This document shows, piece by piece, positions 489-12,293 of a stretch of 51,280 nt of DNA. Source of the stretch: Rhodospirillaceae bacterium (GTDB lineage: Bacteria; Pseudomonadota; Gammaproteobacteria; Steroidobacterales; Rariloculaceae). The translations under genes and the position numbers were made by a program. Under the pieces are notes generated by a model, which saw nothing but the letters and a program-made list of their open reading frames with translations, did not search any database and was not told where the DNA came from. The stretch covers positions 1 through 51,280 of the forward strand of contig JBBIJV010000002.1 in assembly GCA_037445815.1 (NCBI GenBank), given 5' to 3'. Numbering within the stretch: position 1 is the first letter of the stretch; each line of letters starts with the position of its first letter.

Positions 489-908
489 TCAACGCGAACG
501 ACCCACTCCTTGAGCCTGCTCACTCAAGCTTTCCAGAATGGGGCATCCCTCGCGCGCGTTTCGGCAGAGATGGATCAACAACGACAACTCGTTACGCAGC
601 GTTATGAGCTCGCAGAGCTGCTTCTCGATCGCATCGAGCTTTCGGCCGGCGAGTGCGCTCACTTCGTCGCGCACGTGCTGCGGATCCTCGCGCAGCTCGA
701 GCAGCTGTCTGATTTCCGCGAGCGTGAAATTCATGCGTTGCGCACGCCGAATGAATTTCAATCGAGAGACATCTCTGTCCGTGTAAACACGCGTGCGTGC
801 CGCGTCTCGCGCAACGGCGGGCAAGAGCCCGCTTCTTTCGTAGTAGCGAAGCGTATCGACGCTCACGGCGAGCGCCTTGGCAACTTCACCTATCCTATAT
901 TCCGCCAC
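489..908 (-). CDS. MerR-family metal-responsive transcriptional regulator (ZntR/CadR/CueR-like)
   Basis: A GTG start at 908 gives (M)AEYRIGEVAKALAVSVDTLRYYERSGLL, an HTH. The dimerisation helix and C-terminal loop HLCRNAREGCPILESL are present. The long Arg-rich N-extension of ORF 489..1211 looks spurious. Overlaps the 3' end of the upstream thioredoxin-like gene. Confidence 0.8.
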   Translation of the reverse strand: MAEYRIGEVAKALAVSVDTLRYYERSGLLPAVARDAARTRVYTDRDVSRLKFIRRAQRMNFTLAEIRQLLELREDPQHVRDEVSALAGRKLDAIEKQLCELITLRNELSLLIHLCRNAREGCPILESLSEQAQGVGRSR

Positions 909-1192
909 GCCGAGAATCCCGACTGCGTCGCCGCCGCGGCGGCGTCCTGCAGCATCGGCAGCAGCCTGCTCGCCGTCGTTTGGCCCGTGACCGCGAGCGT
1001 ACCGCCGATAGCGATCGCGGGTACCCGGAGCACGCCGATCGCAACAGCGCGATCGAGCTCTTCGACAACATCGACGATCCGGAGCTCGAACTTTTCCTCG
1101 CCAAGAGCGGCGACGGTCTCGGCGACGAGCTTCTCCGCGCCCGCGCAGCACGGGCACGCTTCCGTCACGAACACCTCGATCTTCACGCTCAT
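890..1192 (-). CDS. Small thioredoxin-fold protein (glutaredoxin-like, CPCC redox motif)
   Basis: Internal ATG of ORF 890..1438 gives MSVKIEVFVTEACPCCAGAEKLV...VPAIAIGG. This is typical of roughly 100-aa redox-active disulfide proteins. The start overlaps the upstream gene stop at 1189..1192. Confidence 0.7.
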   Translation of the reverse strand: MSVKIEVFVTEACPCCAGAEKLVAETVAALGEEKFELRIVDVVEELDRAVAIGVLRVPAIAIGGTLAVTGQTTASRLLPMLQDAAAAATQSGFSAWRNIG

Positions 1193-1950
1193 CGCTTTCT
1201 GTTCGGCGCAACGTGCCAGCGTAGACTCAAGAGCCCCAGCGTGTCCCTTGGGCCGTTCAGCTTGCGAATGACGCCGCCCTCGAGAACCCATTTGCGGTGG
1301 ATCCACTGGAGGCCGGCCGTCGCTTGATGGATGGTCTCGTTGCCTTGCTCGTAGCGACCGCCGAGCTCCAGGACCACGTCCCATTCCGACGTGAGACCCC
1401 ACTCCGGATACTCGGCCGGCGTCAGCCGATACTGCCACGAGACATCATAGCGCGCCGCATCCGGCCGGCTCGCGAAGCCCGGTTGATGGAGGAAATCGAA
1501 ATCCAATTCGTAGCGCTCGCGGTACAACGTCGCCACGAGTCCCGCCTGCGCAGCGCCGTGGCGGTCGCTGCCGGCTGGCACGATCGCACCGGCCAGCAAT
1601 GCCACGCGCGTCGTGCGGCCAGGACCGTCTTTCTGCATGGCAATGTGCCGATACAAGGCACTCACGTCGCCGAGTTGATCACTGCCTCCGGGCGACAGTC
1701 GATACGGCACCCCGAAAAGAAGCGTCTGTTTGCCGCTGAGCCCGTACGCGACGCTCATGAGCGCGCTGGTCCGATCGGCATCGTCGTTTCGCTCGAGCTG
1801 CTCGCGCACGATGGCGCCGCCGGCTTCGACGGGCAGTGCGACGAAAGAGGTCAGGCCCATCGCGGAGCTCGCACCCGCGGCGCCGAGACCGGCGGCCAGA
1901 GCCGCGAGCTGCGTCGCTGCGCGACGGAGCTCAGGTCGTGTTACGCACAT
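1189..1950 (-). CDS. Putative secreted/outer-membrane beta-barrel-like protein, function unknown
   Basis: Start taken at MCVTRPELRRAATQLAALAAGLGAAGASSAMG, a signal-like N-terminus. Alternating hydrophobic/polar strands rich in Tyr/Trp/Gly follow (YELDFDF, YDVSWQYRL, WDVVLELGGRY). The start is uncertain. Overlaps the HMA gene end by 20 nt. Confidence 0.4.
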   Translation of the reverse strand: MCVTRPELRRAATQLAALAAGLGAAGASSAMGLTSFVALPVEAGGAIVREQLERNDDADRTSALMSVAYGLSGKQTLLFGVPYRLSPGGSDQLGDVSALYRHIAMQKDGPGRTTRVALLAGAIVPAGSDRHGAAQAGLVATLYRERYELDFDFLHQPGFASRPDAARYDVSWQYRLTPAEYPEWGLTSEWDVVLELGGRYEQGNETIHQATAGLQWIHRKWVLEGGVIRKLNGPRDTLGLLSLRWHVAPNRKR

Positions 1951-2224
1951 CGCCGGGCGTGTACCCCGCATCGATAATCGCCTGCCTGATGACCCCAGCA
2001 TCGAGCTCGTGCTCCGGCTCGACCTCAATTCGGGCACGGCCGTGTTTGAGGCTGATCTCCACGCTCGCAACGCCCGGGAGCTCGCCGAGTTTCCGCCGCA
2101 GCCCCTCTGCGCAGAACGCACAGACCATTCCGCGCACGTCGATCTCGAGCACCGTGCCTCGATCAGCCGCAGTTGCGAGCGGAATGCAAACCAGCAACAG
2201 TGTTATGCACAGCAATCGCTTCAC
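1931..2224 (-). CDS. Periplasmic heavy-metal-associated (HMA) domain protein, MerP/CopZ-like
   Basis: GTG at 2224 is preceded by GGGGAGAG. The signal peptide is VKRLLCITLLLVCIPLATAA, followed by the GMVCAFC metal-binding motif in a ferredoxin-like fold. Confidence 0.75.
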   Translation of the reverse strand: MKRLLCITLLLVCIPLATAADRGTVLEIDVRGMVCAFCAEGLRRKLGELPGVASVEISLKHGRARIEVEPEHELDAGVIRQAIIDAGYTPGDVRNTT

Positions 2225-2240
2225 GGTCTCTCCCCTTCGA

Positions 2241-2621
2241 TCACATACCGAGCGCCGTGCGCAGCGGTAATGCGAGATACGCTGCAAAAAAGCCGAGACA
2301 CCAGACCGCCGCCGCGACCCACAGGGTCCGCCTGTTCCAGTGCGTGGCACGCCGGCAGAGCGCCGCTTCGGCGGGATCGGTCGGGCACGAGCGCCCGGCG
2401 CGGTACGCAAGCCAGGCCGCTGCGCTCAGCGTCAAAGCAGACAACGCAAACACGTAGCCTTTGTACGTGCTCAAGACGATCAGCACAGGCGCACTGCTCG
2501 TGAGCGCCGCGACAGCCGCCCCCATCCCGAGCGCGACGAGCGCGATCGGCAGCGCACAACAGAGGAGCGTGCTCACGCTTGCGAACAAGCTGATCCATGT
2601 AGCCGTCCGGTCGACTCGCAT
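2241..2621 (-). CDS. MerT-like three-helix membrane protein with a CC motif (second metal-uptake-type transporter)
   Basis: Starts MRVDRTATWISLFASVSTLLCCALPIALVALG, with vicinal Cys in TM1. A second Cys pair sits in a loop (RSCPTDPAEAALC), followed by a third TM. The topology mirrors MerT. Confidence 0.6.
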   Translation of the reverse strand: MRVDRTATWISLFASVSTLLCCALPIALVALGMGAAVAALTSSAPVLIVLSTYKGYVFALSALTLSAAAWLAYRAGRSCPTDPAEAALCRRATHWNRRTLWVAAAVWCLGFFAAYLALPLRTALGM

Positions 2622-2659
2622 GGCTCGGTGATCCTCTGTACTCGACTCGACACGGCTAG

Positions 2660-2690
2660 AGCCTACAACCTGGAGCCGACTCCAGGTCAA
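2660..2690 (-). promoter_or_regulatory. MerR-type promoter/operator: TTGACC - 19 bp spacer - TAGGCT with dyad CCTGGAG-N4-CTCCAGG
   Basis: The minus strand reads TTGACC TGGAGTCGGCTCCAGGTTG TAGGCT. It lies about 40 nt upstream of the ATG at 2621. A 19-bp spacer carrying a centred dyad is the hallmark of MerR-family activated promoters. The dyad resembles my memory of the E. coli zntA operator. Confidence 0.6.
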
Positions 2691-2775: not shown

Positions 2776-3558
2776 TCAGGCCCGCTCATCCGACACCGCT
2801 ATTATCCAACCCCCGTTGAGCGCTTGGCTGATCGCCCGCGCGACGACGTCGGCGATCCGGTCCGACGTGATCCACTCCAGCAACGCCTCGCATACGTTTT
2901 CGAGCCGCCGCTCAAGTCCGAGCTCGCGCAACGCCAAAAACGTCTCGTGAGTCACTTCACTGACGCGCGGGCTCTCGCGTACACGCCAGACGACCCATCG
3001 TCGTCGCGCGGTCGAGCACAACTGCGCGAATGGTTCGTCTCGCCGCAAGGAGCGCCAGACGTCGACGGCGTTACTGCTCGTTTCCAAGAGGTGCAGCGCG
3101 GGCGACAACTCGAATTTCAAGCGAGCCCACCGCGCGGCCTCGAGGCCCTCCAATGCATCGGGCGCTACCGGTTCTGTATCGGGCCGGTCGAACACGTCGT
3201 GCACCGCCCACTCGAGCGCTGCGAGATCAGATCGGAAGAGCCCGTCTCGTTCCGCTAGCCAGCCCGCAAGCTGGTTGCCCAGATCACGCAGCGAGGGCGA
3301 GCGTGACGGATGGGCGAGGACGTATTCACCGGCGACAAGAGCGAACGAGCGTTGTCCCAGCACCGTTCGAGTCGCCGGGAAATCATGCGCGAGCGCTTTC
3401 TCGAGTCGCGTGTTGTAAGCGCTTCGATAGACGCGCAAGCGCCGGACCCTTTCAGCCGAATCCCGACCGCGGATTTGTGCGCTCAGGCTCTCTTCCTGCG
3501 CGCCGACGACGAGGTAGCGTTGAAAGCTACGCTGAAGCGACCGTAAGCGCTCGTTCAC
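2776..3558 (-). CDS. DUF2063-family protein (BufC/HvfC-like partner of MNIO enzymes)
   Basis: GTG at 3558 has GGGGAG 10 nt upstream. Translation is (M)NERLRSLQRSFQRYLVVG...RVYRSAYNTRLEKAL, typical of DUF2063. Overlaps the DUF692 gene by 32 nt. Confidence 0.75.
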   Translation of the reverse strand: MNERLRSLQRSFQRYLVVGAQEESLSAQIRGRDSAERVRRLRVYRSAYNTRLEKALAHDFPATRTVLGQRSFALVAGEYVLAHPSRSPSLRDLGNQLAGWLAERDGLFRSDLAALEWAVHDVFDRPDTEPVAPDALEGLEAARWARLKFELSPALHLLETSSNAVDVWRSLRRDEPFAQLCSTARRRWVVWRVRESPRVSEVTHETFLALRELGLERRLENVCEALLEWITSDRIADVVARAISQALNGGWIIAVSDERA

Positions 3559-4381
3559 GATCGATCGACTCCCCGGCTCGCACGCGTCCGATCTCTCGTA
3601 GCAACTCGGCCAAAGCCGGGTAGTGGTCGTCGCGCTCGAGGCATACCGGCACCGGGCCGAAAGCGCGTCTCGCTTCGGCGTAAAGCGCCCACACCGCGTC
3701 ACAGACAGGATGGTCGTGAGTGTCGATCAGCAGCGGAGCGCTGCCGCTATGGCCCGCGAGATGATGCTGGGCGACTCGTCGCGCTGGGAGCGCGCTCAGG
3801 TATTCGCTCGGATCGAAACCGTGATTTACCGCGCTCACGTGCATATTGTTGAGATCGAGCAGGATGAGGCAATCGGCCTGTTCCGCCACGCCGCGGAGGA
3901 AGGCATGTTCGGTCATGGAACCCAAAGCGAGCTCCGCGTAGCTCGATACATTCTCGATAAGGATCTGCCGCCCCAAGGTGTCTTGCACTTCGCGGATACG
4001 CGCGGCGACGTGCTCGACCACGTCTTCGGCGTATGGCAAGGGCAACAGATCATGCAGATGGACGCCGTCATGACGCGTCCAGCAGAGGTGATCCGACACC
4101 GAGACGGGATCGTAGCGATCGACGAGCTGCTTGAGCCGTGCGAGATAGTCACGGTCGAGCGGATCGGTGCCGCCCAGATTCATCGAGACCCCGTGAAAGG
4201 CGATCGGATAGTGCTCGCGTACGTCCGCGAGGACGCGCAGTGGTTTGCCGCCTTCGACCATGAAATTCTCGGTGATCACCTCGAACCAGTCGACCGGGAT
4301 CTCTCCGCGCGCCGCGGCGGCGTAGAACGGCGGGCGGAGCCCCAGCCCCAACCTCGGCGTATCTCGCGCGTTCGCGGTCAT
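3527..4381 (-). CDS. DUF692-family multinuclear non-heme iron oxidase (MNIO; MbnB/BufB-like RiPP maturase)
   Basis: Full-length 284 aa carrying family motifs LGLGLRPP, VDWFEVITENF, HGVSMNLGG, VSDHLCW, ILIENVSSY, LLDLNNMHV, HLAGH. Confidence 0.9.
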   Translation of the reverse strand: MTANARDTPRLGLGLRPPFYAAAARGEIPVDWFEVITENFMVEGGKPLRVLADVREHYPIAFHGVSMNLGGTDPLDRDYLARLKQLVDRYDPVSVSDHLCWTRHDGVHLHDLLPLPYAEDVVEHVAARIREVQDTLGRQILIENVSSYAELALGSMTEHAFLRGVAEQADCLILLDLNNMHVSAVNHGFDPSEYLSALPARRVAQHHLAGHSGSAPLLIDTHDHPVCDAVWALYAEARRAFGPVPVCLERDDHYPALAELLREIGRVRAGESIDRERALTVASA

Positions 4382-4385
4382 TGCT

Positions 4386-5000
4386 TCACGGCAGCATGTA
4401 CTCGAGGTCAGACGCTGCGGTCGGATAAACGAACTTGGCGTACTTGAGATCTCGTGCCTTCAAACCCGAGCGCATCGCGAATGCGAAAAGGTTCACCACC
4501 TCGGCCGCCTCGGGGCCCACCACGTGCGCGCCGAGCACGCGATTCTGTGCCGTTCTCCACGAGGGTCTTGAAGCCGTAGCAAGGCTCATTGACCCGAACC
4601 GCCGTGTACCACTGCGGGACCTTGTCGTGCTTGACCTCGAAGTCCAATCCCGCCGCGCTCGCCTCGGCCTCGAGCATGCCGACCCGCGCGAGCGGAGGCA
4701 GTGTGAACACGGCGCTCGGGATGCCGTGTCGAGATCGCGGTCGAAGCGCGGCAGCGGGCGCGCGCTGCGATGCAGCACCGTGACTTCCGCGCCCGCGCGC
4801 GCCGCGATATCAGCAAACTGTAAGTCGATATAACCCCCGCCGATGACGAGGATGCGGCGCAACAACGCATCGAGCTCGAAGAGGTCATCGCTCAAAGCCA
4901 CGAGTTCCTCGCCCTCGATCGAAAGCGCGACAGGTTTGGCTCCCGCGGCGATGACAACATGGCGCACGTCGAGAACGTGATCACCGACTGGACAAGTGCG
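4386..5000 (-). pseudogene. Decayed pyridine nucleotide-disulfide oxidoreductase: N-terminally truncated, internally deleted and frameshifted
   Basis: One frame gives ...VGDHVLDVRHVVIAAGAKP...ILVIGGGYIDLQFADIAARAGAEVTVLHRSARPLPRFDRDL. A second frame gives FTLPPLARVGMLEAEASAAGLDFEVKHDKVPQWYTAVRVNEPCYGFKTLVE. The reading then returns to the first frame for VLGAHVVGPEAAEVVNLFAFAMR...LEYMLP. The FAD-binding N-terminus with the redox CxxxxC is missing, as is about 90 aa of the central domain. Confidence 0.75.
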
Positions 5001-5291
5001 CTAACCCTTCGCGGGATCGGCCGCCGACCCGGCGAGCGGCACGCCTCCCCGTATGGCGCACTCTTTTTCCGGTACGTTGAGAAACCCTTGCCCCTTGCAT
5101 TCGTTTTGTCCGGTGCACGCGTTGAAAGCGGTCGTGCAAGCGGATTGGCCTTTGCATTCATTGATGCCGAAGCAGGCGATCTCGCCGGCTTCGGCCGCCG
5201 GCGCGAATACGGCAACCGATTTGTGTAACCCATAGAACGCGGCGGCCGCGCCCGCGGCCAGCGCCCCGCCCGCCGCCACGCGCCGGGCCAT
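5001..5291 (-). other. BufA2-like Cys-rich precursor portion; possible independent CDS from internal ATG 5291
   Basis: ATG at 5291 opens a 96-aa product with a Sec-type signal (MARR + Ala/Gly-rich h-region + VFA). It has six Cys in a duplicated NECKGQ motif. No obvious Shine-Dalgarno precedes the ATG (upstream reads agcgagtggtcagcccagcgtcaat). Confidence 0.55.
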
Positions 5292-5711
5292 ATTGACGCT
5301 GGGCTGACCACTCGCTGGGCGCGCGGGCTCAGCCTTCCGGGACGCGGCGAGCCGGCCGTTCACGAAGTCCCACGCGCTGCCGGCGAACAATGCTCCGAGG
5401 CTGACGTACACGAGCCAAGGCAACGGATAAATGCCGGTGACCATCAGCCAAAGCGACACGGACCCCACGATGGCGCCCGAGAGAGCCAGCCAGAACGGTG
5501 CGAGCCGCCCGCGCCGGCGTGCCGAGCGGTACAGCACCCACGCGCTGAACGCAGCGAAGCCGACGAAGAGCGGCACCAAATAGGCATCATGAATGATGAA
5601 GCCGAGCCCGATGGCTCCGAGCCCCGCGAGCACCGCCGGGATGCCGAGACAGCAAGCCGCGGCGATCGCCGCGCCGATCAGGCCCGAAAACTGCTTCAGA
5701 AAATCCTTCAC
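5001..5711 (-). CDS. In-frame fusion of a MerC-like four-helix membrane domain and a bufferin-type (BufA2-like, 6-Cys) precursor domain
   Basis: The GTG start at 5711 overlaps the merD stop (GTGA). The N-terminal part, AACCLGIPAVLAGLGAIGLGF...WDFVNG, resembles MerC. After a 22-aa linker comes MARRVAAGGALAAGAAAAFYGL...VFA, which is signal-peptide or TM like. The C-terminal part is EIACFGINECKGQSACTTAFNACTGQNECKGQGFLNVPEKECAIRGG. No stop codon lies anywhere between the two parts. Confidence 0.7.
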   Translation of the reverse strand: MKDFLKQFSGLIGAAIAAACCLGIPAVLAGLGAIGLGFIIHDAYLVPLFVGFAAFSAWVLYRSARRRGRLAPFWLALSGAIVGSVSLWLMVTGIYPLPWLVYVSLGALFAGSAWDFVNGRLAASRKAEPARPASGQPSVNMARRVAAGGALAAGAAAAFYGLHKSVAVFAPAAEAGEIACFGINECKGQSACTTAFNACTGQNECKGQGFLNVPEKECAIRGGVPLAGSAADPAKG

Positions 5712-6118
5712 TGTTGCACTCCTTGAATATCACGCACTCCGCGGCACCCCTTGGCTTGGTAGCGCTCTGGCGATGCACAAGCTTGATTGAGCTCCCGCAC
5801 GAGCCGATCGAGCACAGCGCGCCGTTCATTCACGCGCGCCAAGACGGTTTCTGGGCTTCGCTGCAACGCGCCACAATCCTCGGCGTCGAGCGTCTCCAAG
5901 AACCTTCTGATGTCTTGCATGGACAATCCCGCGAGCAACGCGCGTCCGATCAAACGCAAGCGGCGCACGGCTTCCTCATCGAAGCGCATGTGCCCTGCGG
6001 GTGTTCGTGCACATGAGGGCACCAAGCGAAACTGCACGTAATTGCGCGCCTGGTTGATCGTCAGATGGGCTTTGCGAGCCGCGTCGCCCAATCGGTAAGT
6101 CGCCCCGGCGTCACCCAT
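5708..6118 (-). CDS. merD: MerD-like MerR-family co-regulator
   Basis: Sits immediately downstream of merA. The HTH is ATYRLGDAARKAHLTINQARNYVQFRLV, followed by MRFDEEAVRRLRLIGRALLAGLSMQDI, which parallels MerD. It has no C-terminal metal-binding Cys loop. The start is ATG 6118, or alternatively 6142. Confidence 0.7.
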   Translation of the reverse strand: MGDAGATYRLGDAARKAHLTINQARNYVQFRLVPSCARTPAGHMRFDEEAVRRLRLIGRALLAGLSMQDIRRFLETLDAEDCGALQRSPETVLARVNERRAVLDRLVRELNQACASPERYQAKGCRGVRDIQGVQQ

Positions 6119-6126
6119 CGCACGCC

Positions 6127-7782
<1,656 letters not shown>

Positions 7783-7788
7783 TCACGA

Positions 7789-8154
7789 TTAGAGCAATCG
7801 CGGCGCGAGCACGTTGACGGCGACCGCCGACAAAGCGAGCGCCGTGGCGATCCACAGCGCCACTTTCAGCACCATGTCCGACATCGGACTCGCGCAATAG
7901 CTGCCCTCTTCGCAGGCAACCTTCGGCTTGCGGTAAACGCGCCAGAAGCCGGCCGCGAGAAAACCAAACGTCGCCACGAGAAACACTGGTTGATAGGGTG
8001 CGAGCGCCGTCAAGTTTCCTATCCACGCGCCGCTGACGCCGAGGCTCAGCAGCAACAGCGGTCCGATGCAACACGATGAGGCGAGCACCGCACCGACGAC
8101 TCCGCCGGCTGCGAGTAGTCCGCGCTTCCCGGCTTCCTTGGCGATGGTGTCCAT
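7789..8154 (-). CDS. merT: Mercuric ion transport protein MerT
   Basis: ATG at 8154 follows AGGAGG. Translation is ...LLAAGGVVGAVLASSCCIGPLLLLSLGVSGAWIGNLTALAPYQPVF...ACEEGSYC. Strong similarity to Tn501/Tn21 MerT, including both Cys pairs. Confidence 0.9.
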   Translation of the reverse strand: MDTIAKEAGKRGLLAAGGVVGAVLASSCCIGPLLLLSLGVSGAWIGNLTALAPYQPVFLVATFGFLAAGFWRVYRKPKVACEEGSYCASPMSDMVLKVALWIATALALSAVAVNVLAPRLL

Positions 8155-8178
8155 CCGTCTTTCACCTCCTTGCAAACG

Positions 8179-8209
8179 AGGCTACAACCTATAGTGACTA
8201 TAGATGCAA
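8179..8209 (-). promoter_or_regulatory. MerR-type promoter/operator upstream of merT: TTGCAT - 19 bp spacer - TAGCCT with perfect dyad CTATAGT-N1-ACTATAG
   Basis: The minus strand reads TTGCAT CTATAGTCACTATAGGTTG TAGCCT, then about 10 nt, then AGGAGG and ATG(8154). It has the same geometry and the same GGTTGTAGsCT 3' flank as the promoter at 2660..2690. Confidence 0.65.
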
Positions 8210-8239
8210 GCGCTGCCGTCGATCTCCAATGAGACCGGT

Positions 8240-8467
8240 TCAGCGCGTCGAATCGAAGTGCCGAAAGGCGCGCAGCGCCGCGATCACGGCTACGGCGAAA
8301 AGCAGCGTCGACAAAACGAGCGCGAGCGTGAAATGCTCGTTCAGCAGTGCGCCGGACGCGGTGCCGGCAAGCAGCAGCGCGAGAACCGGCAGATGACAGG
8401 GGCAGCTGACGATCGCGACGAGCGCGAGAAGATAGGCGCTCGCGTGCGAACCGCGTTGAGCGCTCAA
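8240..8467 (-). CDS. merE: Mercury transporter MerE
   Basis: Starts at TTG. The sequence YLLALVAIVSCPCHLPVLALLLAGTASGALLNEH closely matches the MerE signature LTCPCHLPILAAVLAGT. Confidence 0.8.
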   Translation of the reverse strand: MSAQRGSHASAYLLALVAIVSCPCHLPVLALLLAGTASGALLNEHFTLALVLSTLLFAVAVIAALRAFRHFDSTR

Positions 8468-8478
8468 AAAGCGCCCCG

Positions 8479-8769
8479 TTAGCTCGCGTCTTTGACGTGC
8501 GCCGGGTAGCCCGCGTTCGTTGACGCGGCGGCAATCTCTTTGAGATTCGTGACCGAGTCTTCATACGTGACGACCGCTTCTTTGCGATCGAAGCTCACGT
8601 CGACCGCGGACACACCGTCGACTCGTTCGATCGCCTTGGCGACCGTCACGGGACACAGGGCGCAGTACATTTTTTCGACCGTCAACGTCACCGTCTGCTG
8701 ACCGGCCCAGGCCGAACTCGCGCCCGTCCAGAGCACCAATACGCTCACAGCCGTAAATAACTTCTTCAT
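8479..8769 (-). CDS. merP: Periplasmic mercury-binding protein MerP (variant metal motif)
   Basis: ATG at 8769 follows AAGGAG. Translation is MKKLFTAVSVLVLWTGASSAWAGQQTVTLTVEKMYCALCPVTVAKA...GVSAVDVSFDRKEAVVTY, clearly MerP-like. The motif is KMYCALC rather than GMTCxxC. Confidence 0.9.
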   Translation of the reverse strand: MKKLFTAVSVLVLWTGASSAWAGQQTVTLTVEKMYCALCPVTVAKAIERVDGVSAVDVSFDRKEAVVTYEDSVTNLKEIAAASTNAGYPAHVKDAS

Positions 8770-8791
8770 GAACAACTCCTTGGCTTTTTCG

Positions 8792-8812
8792 ATGGAGGTA
8801 TCGGACCTCCAT
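8792..8812. promoter_or_regulatory. Perfect 8-bp inverted repeat ATGGAGGT-N5-ACCTCCAT just upstream of the merP RBS
   Basis: Read directly from the sequence. It lies 10-30 nt upstream of the merP Shine-Dalgarno. It could be an operator or a 5'-UTR hairpin that sequesters SD-like GGAGG. Confidence 0.35.
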
Positions 8813-8815
8813 GCA

Positions 8816-8846
8816 AAGATAAAAGCTCGAGCTGCTACAGCTTCAA
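8816..8846 (-). promoter_or_regulatory. Weak candidate promoter for merP-merE: TTGAAG - 19 bp - TATCTT
   Basis: The minus strand reads TTGAAG CTGTAGCAGCTCGAGCTTT TATCTT. The spacer contains the palindrome AGCTCGAGCT, but it is off-centre. Confidence 0.3.
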
Positions 8847-9077
8847 GAGGTTTTTTTCGGGATTTCGTCACATTACGGCCCCTCAACGCGGGACCCTGCG
8901 TGCAAGTCATCCCCTCGCGAGCGCTGCCGGTTGATTCGCCTGAGAGCGACCTGGTGCAAAAGCGCGAAATAGTCATTCATTGACGGGACGCGCAACCCGC
9001 CAACTCTTCGGCGACCAGCGTGCCCTCGAACTCCAGATCCGGCCCGGCAGCATCGTGGACAACATATCGATCAGTGC

Positions 9078-9532
9078 TCATGAGCTCTCTCCCCTTGAGC
9101 CCGAGCTAGCCGCTTCGCCCGCTTCGGGTGCGGTCGGCGTGATAGTCCGGTTCTCCACACGCGGCGCGGACACGCGATCAAACTCTCGCGTGTCGTTCGT
9201 GACGACCGTCAAGTCGTTCGCAAGCGCGATCGCCGGGATCAACAAGTCGCAGTCGCCGATCGGATTGTGACGCAGCCGAAAGCGCAGATCACCGTGCATT
9301 TCTGCGGCCGTCCTATCGAAGGTGTAGACGGCATACGGGTCGAGAAACCGATTCCAAAGCTCGCGCTTGCCTGCTGGCTCGGCGTGCTTGGCGGCTCCAT
9401 GCACAGTTCCGCGATGCTGATCGCAGAGACCGCGACCTCCTCCGGACTGCGCCTTTGCAGGCGCTCGCGCACTGCAGTGGGCCGTCCTCGCTGAGCATGA
9501 ATCAGCGCGGTCGTGTCGAGCAGGCACGTCAT
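9078..9532 (-). pseudogene. vapC: Frameshifted PIN-domain toxin VapC
   Basis: The N-terminal frame gives MTCLLDTTALIHAQRGRPTAVRERLQRRSPEEVAVSAISIAEL. The C-terminal part is in another frame: ...NRFLDPYAVYTFDRTAAEMHGDLRFRLRHNPIGDCDLLIPAIALANDLTVVTNDTREFDRV. One frameshift lies near 9390. Confidence 0.7.
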
Positions 9533-9630
9533 GCGTCATCGTCGCTGGTGAGATCCGACAGCGCGCCGTCCAGCGGCTCGACCTCGCCTAGCTCGAGTTC
9601 GCCTTGATGCTGGTCGACCCAGTGCCATGC
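9529..9630 (-). pseudogene. Probable 5'-truncated antitoxin remnant
   Basis: A 33-codon open frame, AWHWVDQHQGELELGEVEPLDGALSDLTSDDDA, has its TGA overlapping the vapC ATG (ATGA). An in-frame stop sits immediately upstream and no start codon is present. Confidence 0.3.
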
Positions 9631-10027
9631 TCAGGGGCGCCGCTACTTGGCGCAGCGCTAGCGCTCGGTGGCGTATTTTGCGGGGTACCTTCCGGCGTCG
9701 ACCGGGTCAGAACCTAACCGCCATGCGGCCGGAGCCTTGACGTCGGCTCCGGCCCCGGGGGAGCCAACATCCTCGTAAAAACAATGGGGTACCCAGATCT
9801 GAGCTGGGTATCACCTTTCCTGCCACCGGGCGCCGATCTCGGCACATAGTTGGTCCCATACCGAACGAGCACGCCGCGGCCACGTTGGCCCAAAATCATT
9901 CGCGGCTCGGTCGCATATTGCCGAAATCATCGGCTCGCAATGATGACATCCATCGTCAGGCTGTTTACGAGCGCGGCCGTCGTCGGCAGAAACGAAGCAC
10001 AATGCAGCGAACGACGGCTCATCGCCG

Positions 10028-12142
10028 CTACTCGACTCGGAACTGAACGCCGAAGTACGCAGACCGCGGCTCGCCGGGATTGAGAATCCGATCGCTCGTG
10101 GCCGCAACGTTACGAACCGAGTGACTCACGACGTACTCTTCGTCTTCAAGGTTGCGGAACTCTGCGTACACCCGCCAGCGCTCGTTCGCCCAACCGGCGC
10201 GCATCCCGAGCAGTGTGTAGGAGTTGATGCGGTATGTGTTCGCGAAGTCGGCGAAGCGCTCGCCGACGAAGTCGAACGTCGGGCCGACGTAGAAGCCGTT
10301 CGCGGACCGATAGACAAGCTCGCCTCTCGCGAAATATTCCGGTGCAGCGGGGAGATCGTTGTCGCCGTAGTTCGAGTCGTTGTCGAAACTGTGGTCGTTG
10401 ATCGTCAAGCTGAGCAGCGGCGAGATAGCCCGATCCGACCGGCCACCGACTGCAAACGTCGCGCTCACCACAGCCTCTAGGCCCGAGTGGATCGTGCGGT
10501 CGATATTCGTCACGAGGCTCGTGCCGGGGGCGCTCGGGTCCTCGACTGACAAGATCTCGTCGTCGATCTCGGCGTAGTAGAGCGAGACATCCCAGCCCCA
10601 ACGATGGCCCGCGCTGAAGTCCCGCCCGCCGCGTGTGCCGACCTCTGCGACCGTGCCTTCCATGGCGCTCAAGGCCTCTCCGACCGCAACGTTGTCTTCG
10701 AGCTCGAAGCTCGTCGGTGGCTCGAAGAGACGGCTGAGGTTTCCATAAACACTCGCGCCGTCGCCGACAGCATGGACCACGCCGAGCCGTGGATTGATGC
10801 CGTCATATTTGCCCCGCGGATTGTAGAGGGCGCCGCTCGCGGCGTCGGTATTGCGAACCTCGCGATCGGCAGAGACCGCCTGAGCGGCTAGGATCAATTT
10901 GGTCCGATCGCTGACCCGCCAGCTGTCCGTCACGAACGCTTCGGTCGTCGAGGAATCATTGTCGACCGACGTCGTCAAGCCATTCGGTGCGCCGCGGAGA
11001 TTCCGGTAGTTGCCGCCCTCGACGTCGCTTTCGCCGTAGTTGAGACCCAAAAGCAAATCGTGATTGCCCGCGCGTCGGCTATAACGCAGCATCGCACCCG
11101 CGTCCCGGTGGTCGGTGTCGATCAGCAAGCTGAAGATCTCGACGCCGCCGAAGGCCACCCAGACGATCGGATGAAATAGCGACTGCTCCTCGATCGACAG
11201 GCCGAAGTCGAGCTGCCGATTCTCGTCGATCTGCCAGCTCGTCTTGTTCGCGAGCCGTAACGTTTCGACATTGAGCTGATAGTGGCCGTCGACCGCAGCT
11301 TGGCTCGCGCGGCCAGGATCCGCATCGAGCTCCGCACGCGTCAGCGAGCCCGGCAGCTCTTGGTCGTTCTCGAGGTACGCGACGAAGAAACGCGTCGCAA
11401 CGTTCTCGCCGGCCTGCCACCCCGCGTTGGCATAAAGCCCGCGGCGGTCTTGTTCATTGTGCTCACGATAGCCATCCCACCGTTTGCCTTCGAGCGTCAA
11501 CATGCCGTCGAACGACTCGTCGAACACCCCGCCGAGACTCAAACGCCCGAGCGTCTGCCCGTGACTGCCTGCGTTCAGCGCGACGTCCAGGCGCGAGCTG
11601 TCGCGCGCCGTCGGCGTGATGAAATTAATCGCGCCGCCGAGCGTGCTCGCGCCATACGTCAACGCGTTCGCGCCGCGGGCCACGGTGGCGTAGCGCGCGG
11701 CGAGCGGGTCGATGATGCGGTTGTGATTGTTGCCGTCCGCCGTCGTGACCGGCAGCCCGTCTTGCAACAGCTTGATGCCGTTCATGTCCCAATCGGTGGC
11801 GTCCAGATTGGAACCGCGGCTCGAGAAGAACATGTCGTCATTGCCGGTGTCGCTCACTGACCAGATGCCCGGCACGTATCGCAGCACATCAGCGAGACTC
11901 CCCACTTGACGCTCAAGGAAGTCCTCCATGTCGATCAGGCTTGCGCCGCCCGGCGTGAGCGCGATCTCCGCTTCGAGTGCTCGTCCGAGTTCATCGTCGC
12001 GGGCGCGCCCCGTGCGCGGGAAAACTTCGAGCCGCGATCTCGCTTCACTCTCCTGACTGTGAGCCGGCGACGCCGCGAAAAGCCAACAGAGCTGGGTTAC
12101 GCACACGGCCGCAACCAGTAGATCGAGGAGATGTCGACGCAA
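10028..12142 (-). CDS. TonB-dependent outer-membrane receptor
   Basis: The plug region is LADVLRYVPGIW...SSRGSNL...LLQDGLP...YGASTLGGAINFIT. A long beta-barrel follows and ends YFGVQFRVE. I chose the TTG start at 12142 (GGAG 8 nt upstream), which gives the signal peptide (M)RRHLLDLLVAAVCVTQLCWLFAASPAHS. The longer ORF N-terminus is Arg-rich and implausible. Confidence 0.85.
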   Translation of the reverse strand: MRRHLLDLLVAAVCVTQLCWLFAASPAHSQESEARSRLEVFPRTGRARDDELGRALEAEIALTPGGASLIDMEDFLERQVGSLADVLRYVPGIWSVSDTGNDDMFFSSRGSNLDATDWDMNGIKLLQDGLPVTTADGNNHNRIIDPLAARYATVARGANALTYGASTLGGAINFITPTARDSSRLDVALNAGSHGQTLGRLSLGGVFDESFDGMLTLEGKRWDGYREHNEQDRRGLYANAGWQAGENVATRFFVAYLENDQELPGSLTRAELDADPGRASQAAVDGHYQLNVETLRLANKTSWQIDENRQLDFGLSIEEQSLFHPIVWVAFGGVEIFSLLIDTDHRDAGAMLRYSRRAGNHDLLLGLNYGESDVEGGNYRNLRGAPNGLTTSVDNDSSTTEAFVTDSWRVSDRTKLILAAQAVSADREVRNTDAASGALYNPRGKYDGINPRLGVVHAVGDGASVYGNLSRLFEPPTSFELEDNVAVGEALSAMEGTVAEVGTRGGRDFSAGHRWGWDVSLYYAEIDDEILSVEDPSAPGTSLVTNIDRTIHSGLEAVVSATFAVGGRSDRAISPLLSLTINDHSFDNDSNYGDNDLPAAPEYFARGELVYRSANGFYVGPTFDFVGERFADFANTYRINSYTLLGMRAGWANERWRVYAEFRNLEDEEYVVSHSVRNVAATSDRILNPGEPRSAYFGVQFRVE

Positions 12143-12293
12143 AGGCGTTGCTCCATATCGACGGGCCTGCGAGAGATTGTAGAGAGCAACGCACTCGGAG
12201 CCGATGCGGCATATTGCCGCAGGGGTGTAACACTCTTGCTGAGCGCGCCGGTGCGACAAATCGTCGCGACGCAGTCGCACAAAATGACGAGAT

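Follow-up and report, generated by a model that had tools for sequence, protein, structure and literature searches.

The window analysed here, a stretch of 51,280 nucleotides from a Rhodospirillaceae bacterium (GenBank assembly GCA_037445815.1, contig JBBIJV010000002.1), carries on its minus strand a gene, merC::bufA2, in which the coding sequence of a MerC-family protein runs in frame and without a stop codon into that of a BufA2-type bufferin. This gene is real and widely conserved, and not an assembly error. Judged by its sequence, the encoded protein is a further member of the MerC|Buf2 class of chimaeras, a concept that is already known from an in silico study (Microb Genom 2025; PMC12452194). 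We consider it probable that it acts as one inner-membrane polypeptide of this class, in which the Buf2 domain would be a tethered periplasmic Hg(II) module that feeds MerC. Bufferins are a very large family of peptides that are made on ribosomes and modified after translation (RiPPs), for which copper protection is so far the only experimentally shown role; a bufferin domain fused to a mercury importer within mer operons is the clearest genomic hint that other soft metals may be handled as well.

The fusion gene and its family

The gene consists of the following parts:

5001..5711, minus strand: merC::bufA2 fusion open reading frame, 236 codons encoding 236 residues, GTG start, TAG stop
5719..5724, minus strand: Shine-Dalgarno sequence AAGGAG, 7 nucleotides upstream of the GTG start, as read from the sequence
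5352..5711, minus strand: MerC-family moiety, residues 1-120 (PF03203), with four predicted transmembrane helices, Cys20-Cys21 in the first and WDF ending the fourth
5283..5351, minus strand: linker, residues 121-143, variable, positively charged and predicted to be cytoplasmic; corresponds to the MerC C-terminal tail and contains the ATG at 5289-5291
5220..5282, minus strand: fifth hydrophobic helix, residues 144-164, the former BufA2 Sec signal peptide, with a conserved R144 and a conserved FYGxxKS interface motif
5043..5219, minus strand: pre-core with A-E-A|G (residues 173-176) and six-Cys Buf2 core (residues 176-223), NF050166
5001..5042, minus strand: subfamily-specific C-terminal tail PLxGSxxDPxxG and stop codon, beyond the NF050166 profile match

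The GTG start codon at 5711 overlaps the TGA stop codon (5708-5710) of an upstream merD-like gene as GTGA, which, together with the AAGGAG sequence, is an arrangement typical of translational coupling. In the protein, the Pfam MerC profile PF03203 matches residues 10-116 over profile positions 4-107 of 108, with a score of 27.6 bits that exactly equals the gathering cutoff, and the NCBIfam profile NF050166 (BufA2 family periplasmic bufferin-type metallophore) matches residues 150-223 over profile positions 3-76 of 79 with 75.5 bits (cutoff 60). Pfam has no BufA2 model, and the C-terminal part yields only a sub-threshold match to DUF7640 there. A preliminary description of this stretch had proposed a 236-codon reading frame with a MerC-like N-terminus followed by a complete bufferin-like precursor. 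Both assignments are borne out by the two profiles, and all of the motifs it listed (AACCLG, WDFV, MARR followed by a hydrophobic segment and VFA, and six cysteines) are found.

Fused proteins of this kind are numerous. When 5.8 billion protein clusters were searched, 254 matched at E ≤ 1e-3. The best 120 of these are 227-271 residues long and align with 96-100% of the query (99-100% in 119 cases), with sequence identities of 59-76%. The homologue statistics given in the following were taken over 156 distinct full-length fusion proteins, and the locus statistics come from a scan with one genome per species, which yielded 374 related stretches, with 77 loci kept (labelled L0xx). At 50 of these 77 loci, a MerC-like part is directly followed by a BufA2-like part, and in 48 of the 50 the two lie in one frame without a stop codon, which answers the question, raised in the preliminary description, whether homologues carry a stop between the parts. 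The linker is 13-40 residues long across the fusion homologues, so that the reading frame has been kept through many insertions and deletions. The two exceptions are L035, which has a TAA in the linker, and L048, a frameshifted copy. L035 was considered as a natural unfused version and rejected: no start codon follows the TAA, and the contig name gives a coverage of about 2x, so that we put the TAA down to an error or to a nonsense mutation of recent origin. As for the window copy itself, the Logan assembly of SRR11582143 matches window positions 4582-12187 with 99.78% nucleotide identity over 7.6 kb, and its contig encodes the identical 236-residue protein, called as a single gene.

The conserved residues are spread over both parts of the protein. 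Cys20-Cys21 in the first transmembrane helix is found in all of the 156 homologues. R144, F159 and Y160 are also invariant, while K164-S165, at the predicted periplasmic interface, is near-invariant in the homologue alignment. Each of the six core cysteines (C180, C186, C192, C199, C205 and C218) is kept in at least 154 of the 156 homologues, and all family-invariant residues are present in the window copy. A linker with at least two cysteines, forming a CxxxxC pair, occurs in 77 of the 156, and the cytoplasmic tail motif RR..C....CE.P is retained in most fusion homologues. The unfused MerC homologue at L057 (Methylobacter) stops directly after its CxxxxC tail, at the point where the fusions carry on; the two parts are therefore joined at the point where MerC naturally has its C-terminus. 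With L057 on the one hand and stand-alone BufA2 paralogues (see below) on the other, fused and unfused versions both exist, a point that the preliminary description had left undecided. The C-terminal tail (residues 224-236, window positions 5001-5042) is likewise conserved and devoid of metal-binding residues; BufC might recognize it, or it might make contact with MerC.

The carriers of the fusion are mostly uncultured Gammaproteobacteria (Woeseiaceae, Thiohalobacter, Chromatiales, Acidiferrobacterales and Methylococcales), besides some Beta-, Zeta- and Alphaproteobacteria. Among the PLSDB plasmids, tblastn found no fused homologue and a single BufA2-like piece, on a Novosphingobium replicon; the window itself is chromosomal and carries gyrA and rpsA. 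At NCBI, several fusion members are already named 'BufA2 family periplasmic bufferin-type metallophore'.

Linkage to mer and buf genes

On the minus strand of the window, the genes follow each other in the order merP, merE, merT, merA, merD-like gene, fusion, oxidoreductase remnant, bufB and bufC:

8479-8976, minus strand: merP (PF00403)
8240-8467, minus strand: merE (PF05052, 60 bits, CPC motif)
7789-8175, minus strand: merT (PF02411, 103 bits)
6127..7755, minus strand: merA, mercuric reductase carrying an HMA domain at its N-terminus (Pfam families of the called gene)
5708..6181, minus strand: MerR-family regulator in the merD position (PF13411, PF09278; TIGR02054 MerD 48 bits, below cutoff)
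4386..4988, minus strand: decayed gene for a pyridine-nucleotide disulfide oxidoreductase, with Pfam fragments, situated between the fusion and bufB
3527..4381, minus strand: bufB, MNIO-family bufferin maturase (NF050167 356 bits, cutoff 310; PF05114 352 bits)
2776..3702, minus strand: bufC, DUF2063 partner of the maturase (PF09836 68 bits), which follows bufB in related loci

The merE gene was missed by the gene caller on the Logan contig, which placed an opposite-strand open reading frame there instead.

Across the related loci, the fusion is tightly linked to mercury resistance, and to the maturase genes in only about half of the cases. A merA gene is found directly upstream of the fusion, on its strand, in 32 of the 37 related loci; these merA homologues are 58-66% identical. 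Downstream, bufB-bufC are found in 15 of the 32 loci whose downstream sequence extends for at least 3 kb, a count that rises to 16 with L008, where bufB abuts the fusion stop codon and had been missed by the automated filter.

The oxidoreductase remnant corresponds, across different frames, to residues 127-213, 339-406 and 407-455 of the 456-residue homologue that is intact in L009. It is frameshifted and internally deleted, and it does not have the N-terminal 126 residues, which include the redox-active Cys motif. Intact versions lie between the fusion and bufB in L009, L020 and L047, and after bufC in L006, L019 and L024. This recurrence suggests that the oxidoreductase is a conserved accessory reductase of mer-buf clusters, which in the window would have decayed.

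Predicted topology, proposed mechanism and alternatives

The distribution of charges and hydrophobic segments is consistent with a protein that has a cytoplasmic N-terminus, four transmembrane helices (TM1-4), a cytoplasmic linker, a fifth transmembrane helix (TM5) and a C-terminal domain on the outer face: Lys and Arg number five in the loop at residues 62-69 and six in the linker region at residues 117-144, and are absent from the two short predicted periplasmic loops. An AlphaFold2 model built with 35 homologues has helices at residues 2-39, 43-67, 71-92, 98-126 and 141-169, followed by a small domain of two strands and a helix; given its modest confidence (pLDDT, the predicted local distance difference test, of 67), we used it for secondary structure only. 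With the whole fusion protein as query, the PDB sequences gave nothing at E ≤ 1, and a Foldseek comparison of the model with the PDB gave no match at E ≤ 0.001, its top entries being unrelated helical proteins.

The TM5 segment can be aligned to the signal peptides that stand-alone BufA2 paralogues carry. It is internal (residues 144-164), with 143 residues before it, and does not stand at the N-terminus like the signal peptide of BufA2 proteins. Its mean majority frequency is 0.81, compared with 0.72-0.84 for TM1-4 and 0.41 for the linker, and it is thus conserved, unlike the signal peptides that ordinary BufA2 proteins have in other loci, which are divergent. These observations support a six-Cys domain that is predicted to lie in the periplasm behind the fifth helix. 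The preliminary description had arrived at the same picture, with the former signal peptide as a fifth transmembrane helix and a periplasmic Cys-rich domain, and it fits the conserved frame, the charges, the AlphaFold2 model, the conservation of TM5 and the published description of the class (PMC12452194).

From this topology and the genomic setting, we propose the following mechanism. The fusion would be the last mer gene, translated from the GTG at 5711 by coupling to the merD-like gene. Its four-helix moiety would be a MerC-family Hg(II) uptake unit with the Cys20-Cys21 pair in TM1, and the cytoplasmic MerC tail would lead without a stop into the former BufA2 Sec signal peptide, now TM5. 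In the cytoplasm, BufB (MNIO) and BufC (DUF2063) would probably convert the Buf2 domain to a metal site that bears thiooxazoles before the domain crosses the membrane, and TM5 would then carry it to the periplasmic face. There, the domain would capture periplasmic Hg(II) and pass the metal to the vicinal cysteines of MerC, from which it would go to MerA for reduction, analogous to MerP serving MerT or to MerTP fusions.

As to the order of these events, the modification of bufferins does not need the signal peptide, and both the conversion of Cys to 5-thiooxazole and metal binding have been shown for bufferins of C. vibrioides only (PMC11626156). We suggest, as a tentative possibility that we would not rate highly, that BufB and BufC form the thiooxazoles after TM1-4 have inserted and before the weakly hydrophobic TM5 crosses, with the domain staying tethered as an Hg(II) receptor. 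How a cytoplasmic maturase acts on a domain of a co-translationally inserted membrane protein is a mechanistic question that this family poses. If the proposal is true, the fusion would be the first MNIO-modified domain working within a membrane transporter, as well as the first bufferin for which a role with a metal besides copper is demonstrated. Furthermore, one gene with or without bufBC, and with Hg uptake or resistance as a readout, makes for a simple test system.

Several points weigh against this proposal. The MerC match is marginal, lying only at the Pfam threshold (27.6 bits), and the NCBIfam MerC equivalog models score below their cutoffs (NF010318 25 bits against 170, NF033784 21 against 140); the shortfall for these Tn21-type models is such that the N-terminal part is to be seen as a distant member of the MerC family and not as an orthologue. 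No bufB/bufC lie within 7 kb in about half of the loci, and modification of the Buf2 domain may therefore not be obligatory. The window copy does not have the linker Cys pair (LAASRKAEPARP) and adjoins a decayed gene, and with its ATG at codon 141 it may give rise to a minor short product. TM5 is rich in Ala and Gly, and its hydrophobicity is below that of TM1-4. The members of the fusion family are known as sequences alone, and both topology and retention are predictions. Lastly, a signal-peptidase motif of the AXA type (A-E-A|G, conforming to the -3/-1 rule) precedes the core in 111 of the 156 homologues, which makes a release of the Buf2 domain possible.

Such a release is the strongest of the alternatives. 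The fusion would then be a delivery vehicle: signal peptidase I would cut at A-E-A|G (residues 173-175|176) and set free a soluble bufferin and a five-helix MerC, and the fusion would serve only to secure their co-expression and co-localization. Besides its frequency among the fusions, the -3/-1 compliant motif is also kept in the stand-alone paralogues of L015, L017, L021 and L064, and mature bufferins do arise by cleavage at a predicted signal-peptidase site (PMC11626156). However, position -1 is occupied by E, K, V, T or Q in 45 of the 156 homologues, and the motif lies about 11 residues past the conserved Lys that ends the hydrophobic stretch, which would be a long c-region. TM5, moreover, is as conserved as the other transmembrane helices, which is unusual for a signal peptide that is discarded. 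We therefore regard cleavage as rather unlikely and favour, as the probable outcome, a Buf2 domain that stays tethered. Membrane tethering, as put forward in the preliminary description, accordingly finds support in the conservation of TM5; it remains a prediction, with the AXA motif in 111 of 156 homologues counting against it.

A second alternative, which we consider distinctly less likely than cleavage, is that the tethered domain is a sink and not a relay, and that it sequesters periplasmic Hg(II) or Cu without transfer to the MerC channel. The characterized bufferins protect by chelating excess periplasmic copper (PMC11626156), and both the loci without bufBC, about half of the total, and the weakness of the MerC match would fit this view. 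Then again, the near-exclusive linkage to merA and merT/P (32/37 loci) and the fusion to an uptake protein favour import and reduction, and one domain per transporter would provide little buffering capacity.

Very improbable, in our estimate, is the synthesis of two proteins from one frame, in which the internal ATG (5291..5289, codon 141) would yield a secreted BufA2 precursor besides or instead of the long product. In the window, this codon is followed by a normal n-region (MARR) and h-region, and a Met aligns with Met141 in 18 of the 156 homologues. Yet in most of the others the position is taken by L, P, A, T, V, F or R, and only 31 of the 156 have any Met within the linker. Inspection of the 20 nucleotides upstream of the ATG revealed no Shine-Dalgarno sequence, in agreement with the preliminary description, which had brought up this start, whereas the GTG at 5711 has its AAGGAG. 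Separate translation would also not require the frame at the junction to be kept, as it is in 48 of 50 loci. Since Met141 is not conserved, separate translation of the bufferin is not a feature of the fusion family, and the use of this start is unsupported as a general mechanism.

Finally, we give next to no credence to an artefact or a decaying gene, in which the stop codon was lost by sequencing error or by pseudogenization in an eroding locus: the frameshifted oxidoreductase remnant next to the gene, the split PIN gene nearby (see below), the TAA in the linker of L035 (at about 2x coverage) and the frameshifted L048 might point that way, but there are 156 distinct intact fusions, the identical protein appears in a second assembly (SRR11582143), and the window copy retains all family-invariant residues.

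Neighbouring features and relation to known systems

Downstream of bufC, the window contains a second metal-handling module (489-2690, minus strand), and upstream of merP it contains a PIN-domain gene:

2241-2690, minus strand: MerT-like protein of 149 residues, second metal-handling module
1931-2410, minus strand: HMA-domain protein, second metal-handling module
1189-2121, minus strand: open reading frame of 310 residues without a family match, which adjoins the HMA gene also in L006 and L010
890-1438, minus strand: thioredoxin-like protein, second metal-handling module
489-1211, minus strand: second MerR regulator, second metal-handling module
9078-9539 and 9239-9532, minus strand: PIN-domain (VapC-like) gene, split over two overlapping frames

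Given its split between two overlapping frames, the PIN-domain gene is probably a frameshifted pseudogene. A direct repeat (180-441 and 4344-4605, 80% identical) takes in the oxidoreductase remnant's 3' end together with the initial 38 nucleotides of bufB, and the Logan contig (L078) ends within it, at window position 4582. Just past the left end of the window there may be a second buf cluster, which is possibly decayed.

The closest known system is the MerC|Buf2 class itself. Both MerC|Buf1 and MerC|Buf2 chimaeras have been reported in silico, with five predicted transmembrane segments and a predicted periplasmic location of the bufferin domain, in gene clusters associated with mercury detoxification; they were described as 'a few instances', with OOO01496.1 as an example (PMC12452194). 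OOO01496.1, the protein of locus L023, shares 62% identity with the window protein across the full length. The two have in common the MerC domain, the predicted fifth transmembrane helix, the six-Cys Buf2 domain, the mercury context and bufB/bufC, and they differ in nothing essential; the window protein has no linker CxxxxC, and its locus has a decayed oxidoreductase before bufB. Among the papers searched, only this one and its preprint mention MerC alongside bufferins; no experimental work on the fusion was found, nor were counts of MerC fusions in the supplementary tables of the paper. As the concept is already in the literature, the window protein is not a discovery, and the preliminary description, which held that a membrane-anchored RiPP substrate would be unusual, had been anticipated by this report from 2025.

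What our analysis adds is detail. With at least 156 distinct proteins and 48 species-level loci, the family is far larger than a few instances, and the fusion is obligate, with no internal start kept across the family. Conservation of the former signal peptide is that of a structural helix, the fusion point coincides exactly with the MerC C-terminal tail, and bufBC are not found nearby in about half of the loci.

With stand-alone BufA2 proteins of the type of Caulobacter vibrioides CCNA_03001, the fusion shares the spacing of the six cysteines, a hydrophobic export segment and the adjacent bufB/bufC. The stand-alone proteins, however, have their own Met start and a divergent, cleavable Sec signal peptide, and they are soluble, periplasmic and linked to copper stress, whereas in the fusion the signal peptide is internal, highly conserved and placed after a four-helix transporter in a mercury context. 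The tail GGVPLxGSxxDP is specific to the subfamily of the fusion. Stand-alone BufA2 paralogues occur right after the fusion, ahead of bufB, in L015 (3404-3697), L017 (7930-8223) and L021 (7836-8072), and next to bufB in L064 (134-427). They have long polar N-termini (MKK...VDLSKRK) like the fusion linker and share the tail GGVPLKGSPADPKK with the fusions. With the common tail and their position next to the fusions, fused and unfused forms of one subfamily coexist in one operon.

Tn21-type MerC (organomercurial transporter MerC, 140 residues) resembles the fusion in its four hydrophobic helices, the Cys site in TM1, the WDFV that ends TM4 and the setting in a mer operon, and its cytoplasmic tail RR..C....CE.P is common to most fusion homologues. 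The Tn21 MerC sequence used here was checked against annotated plasmids, of which more than 2000 records carry a merC that is 100% identical to it. Sequence identity to the fusion is 29%; the fusion is about 95 residues longer and has a vicinal CC where Tn21 has CAAC in TM1. The gene positions differ as well: in Tn21, merC lies between merP and merA, whereas the fusion gene follows merA.

A similar logic is seen in MerP with MerT and in the MerTP fusions (NF033556), where a periplasmic Hg(II) module with cysteines stands beside, or is fused to, an importer with a Cys pair in TM1. In these, the module is an HMA fold with a CxxC site, whereas that of the fusion is a RiPP-type bufferin domain that may need modification by an MNIO enzyme. 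The likeness is one of analogy only, and no homology was found.

Lastly, the MerC|Buf1 chimaeras combine a MerC-like moiety, linker and TM5 as in the window protein, with 48-50% identity, but their periplasmic domain is of the four-Cys DUF2282/Buf1 type instead of Buf2, and they are found in cultured Alphaproteobacteria:

L050, 7001-7693: MerC|Buf1 fusion of Aminobacter ciceronei DSM 15910
L053, 7001-7681: MerC|Buf1 fusion of Tistlia consotensis USBA 355

These two cultured strains would be practical experimental hosts, in which the same architecture of transporter, linker and fifth helix is joined to the other type of bufferin domain.

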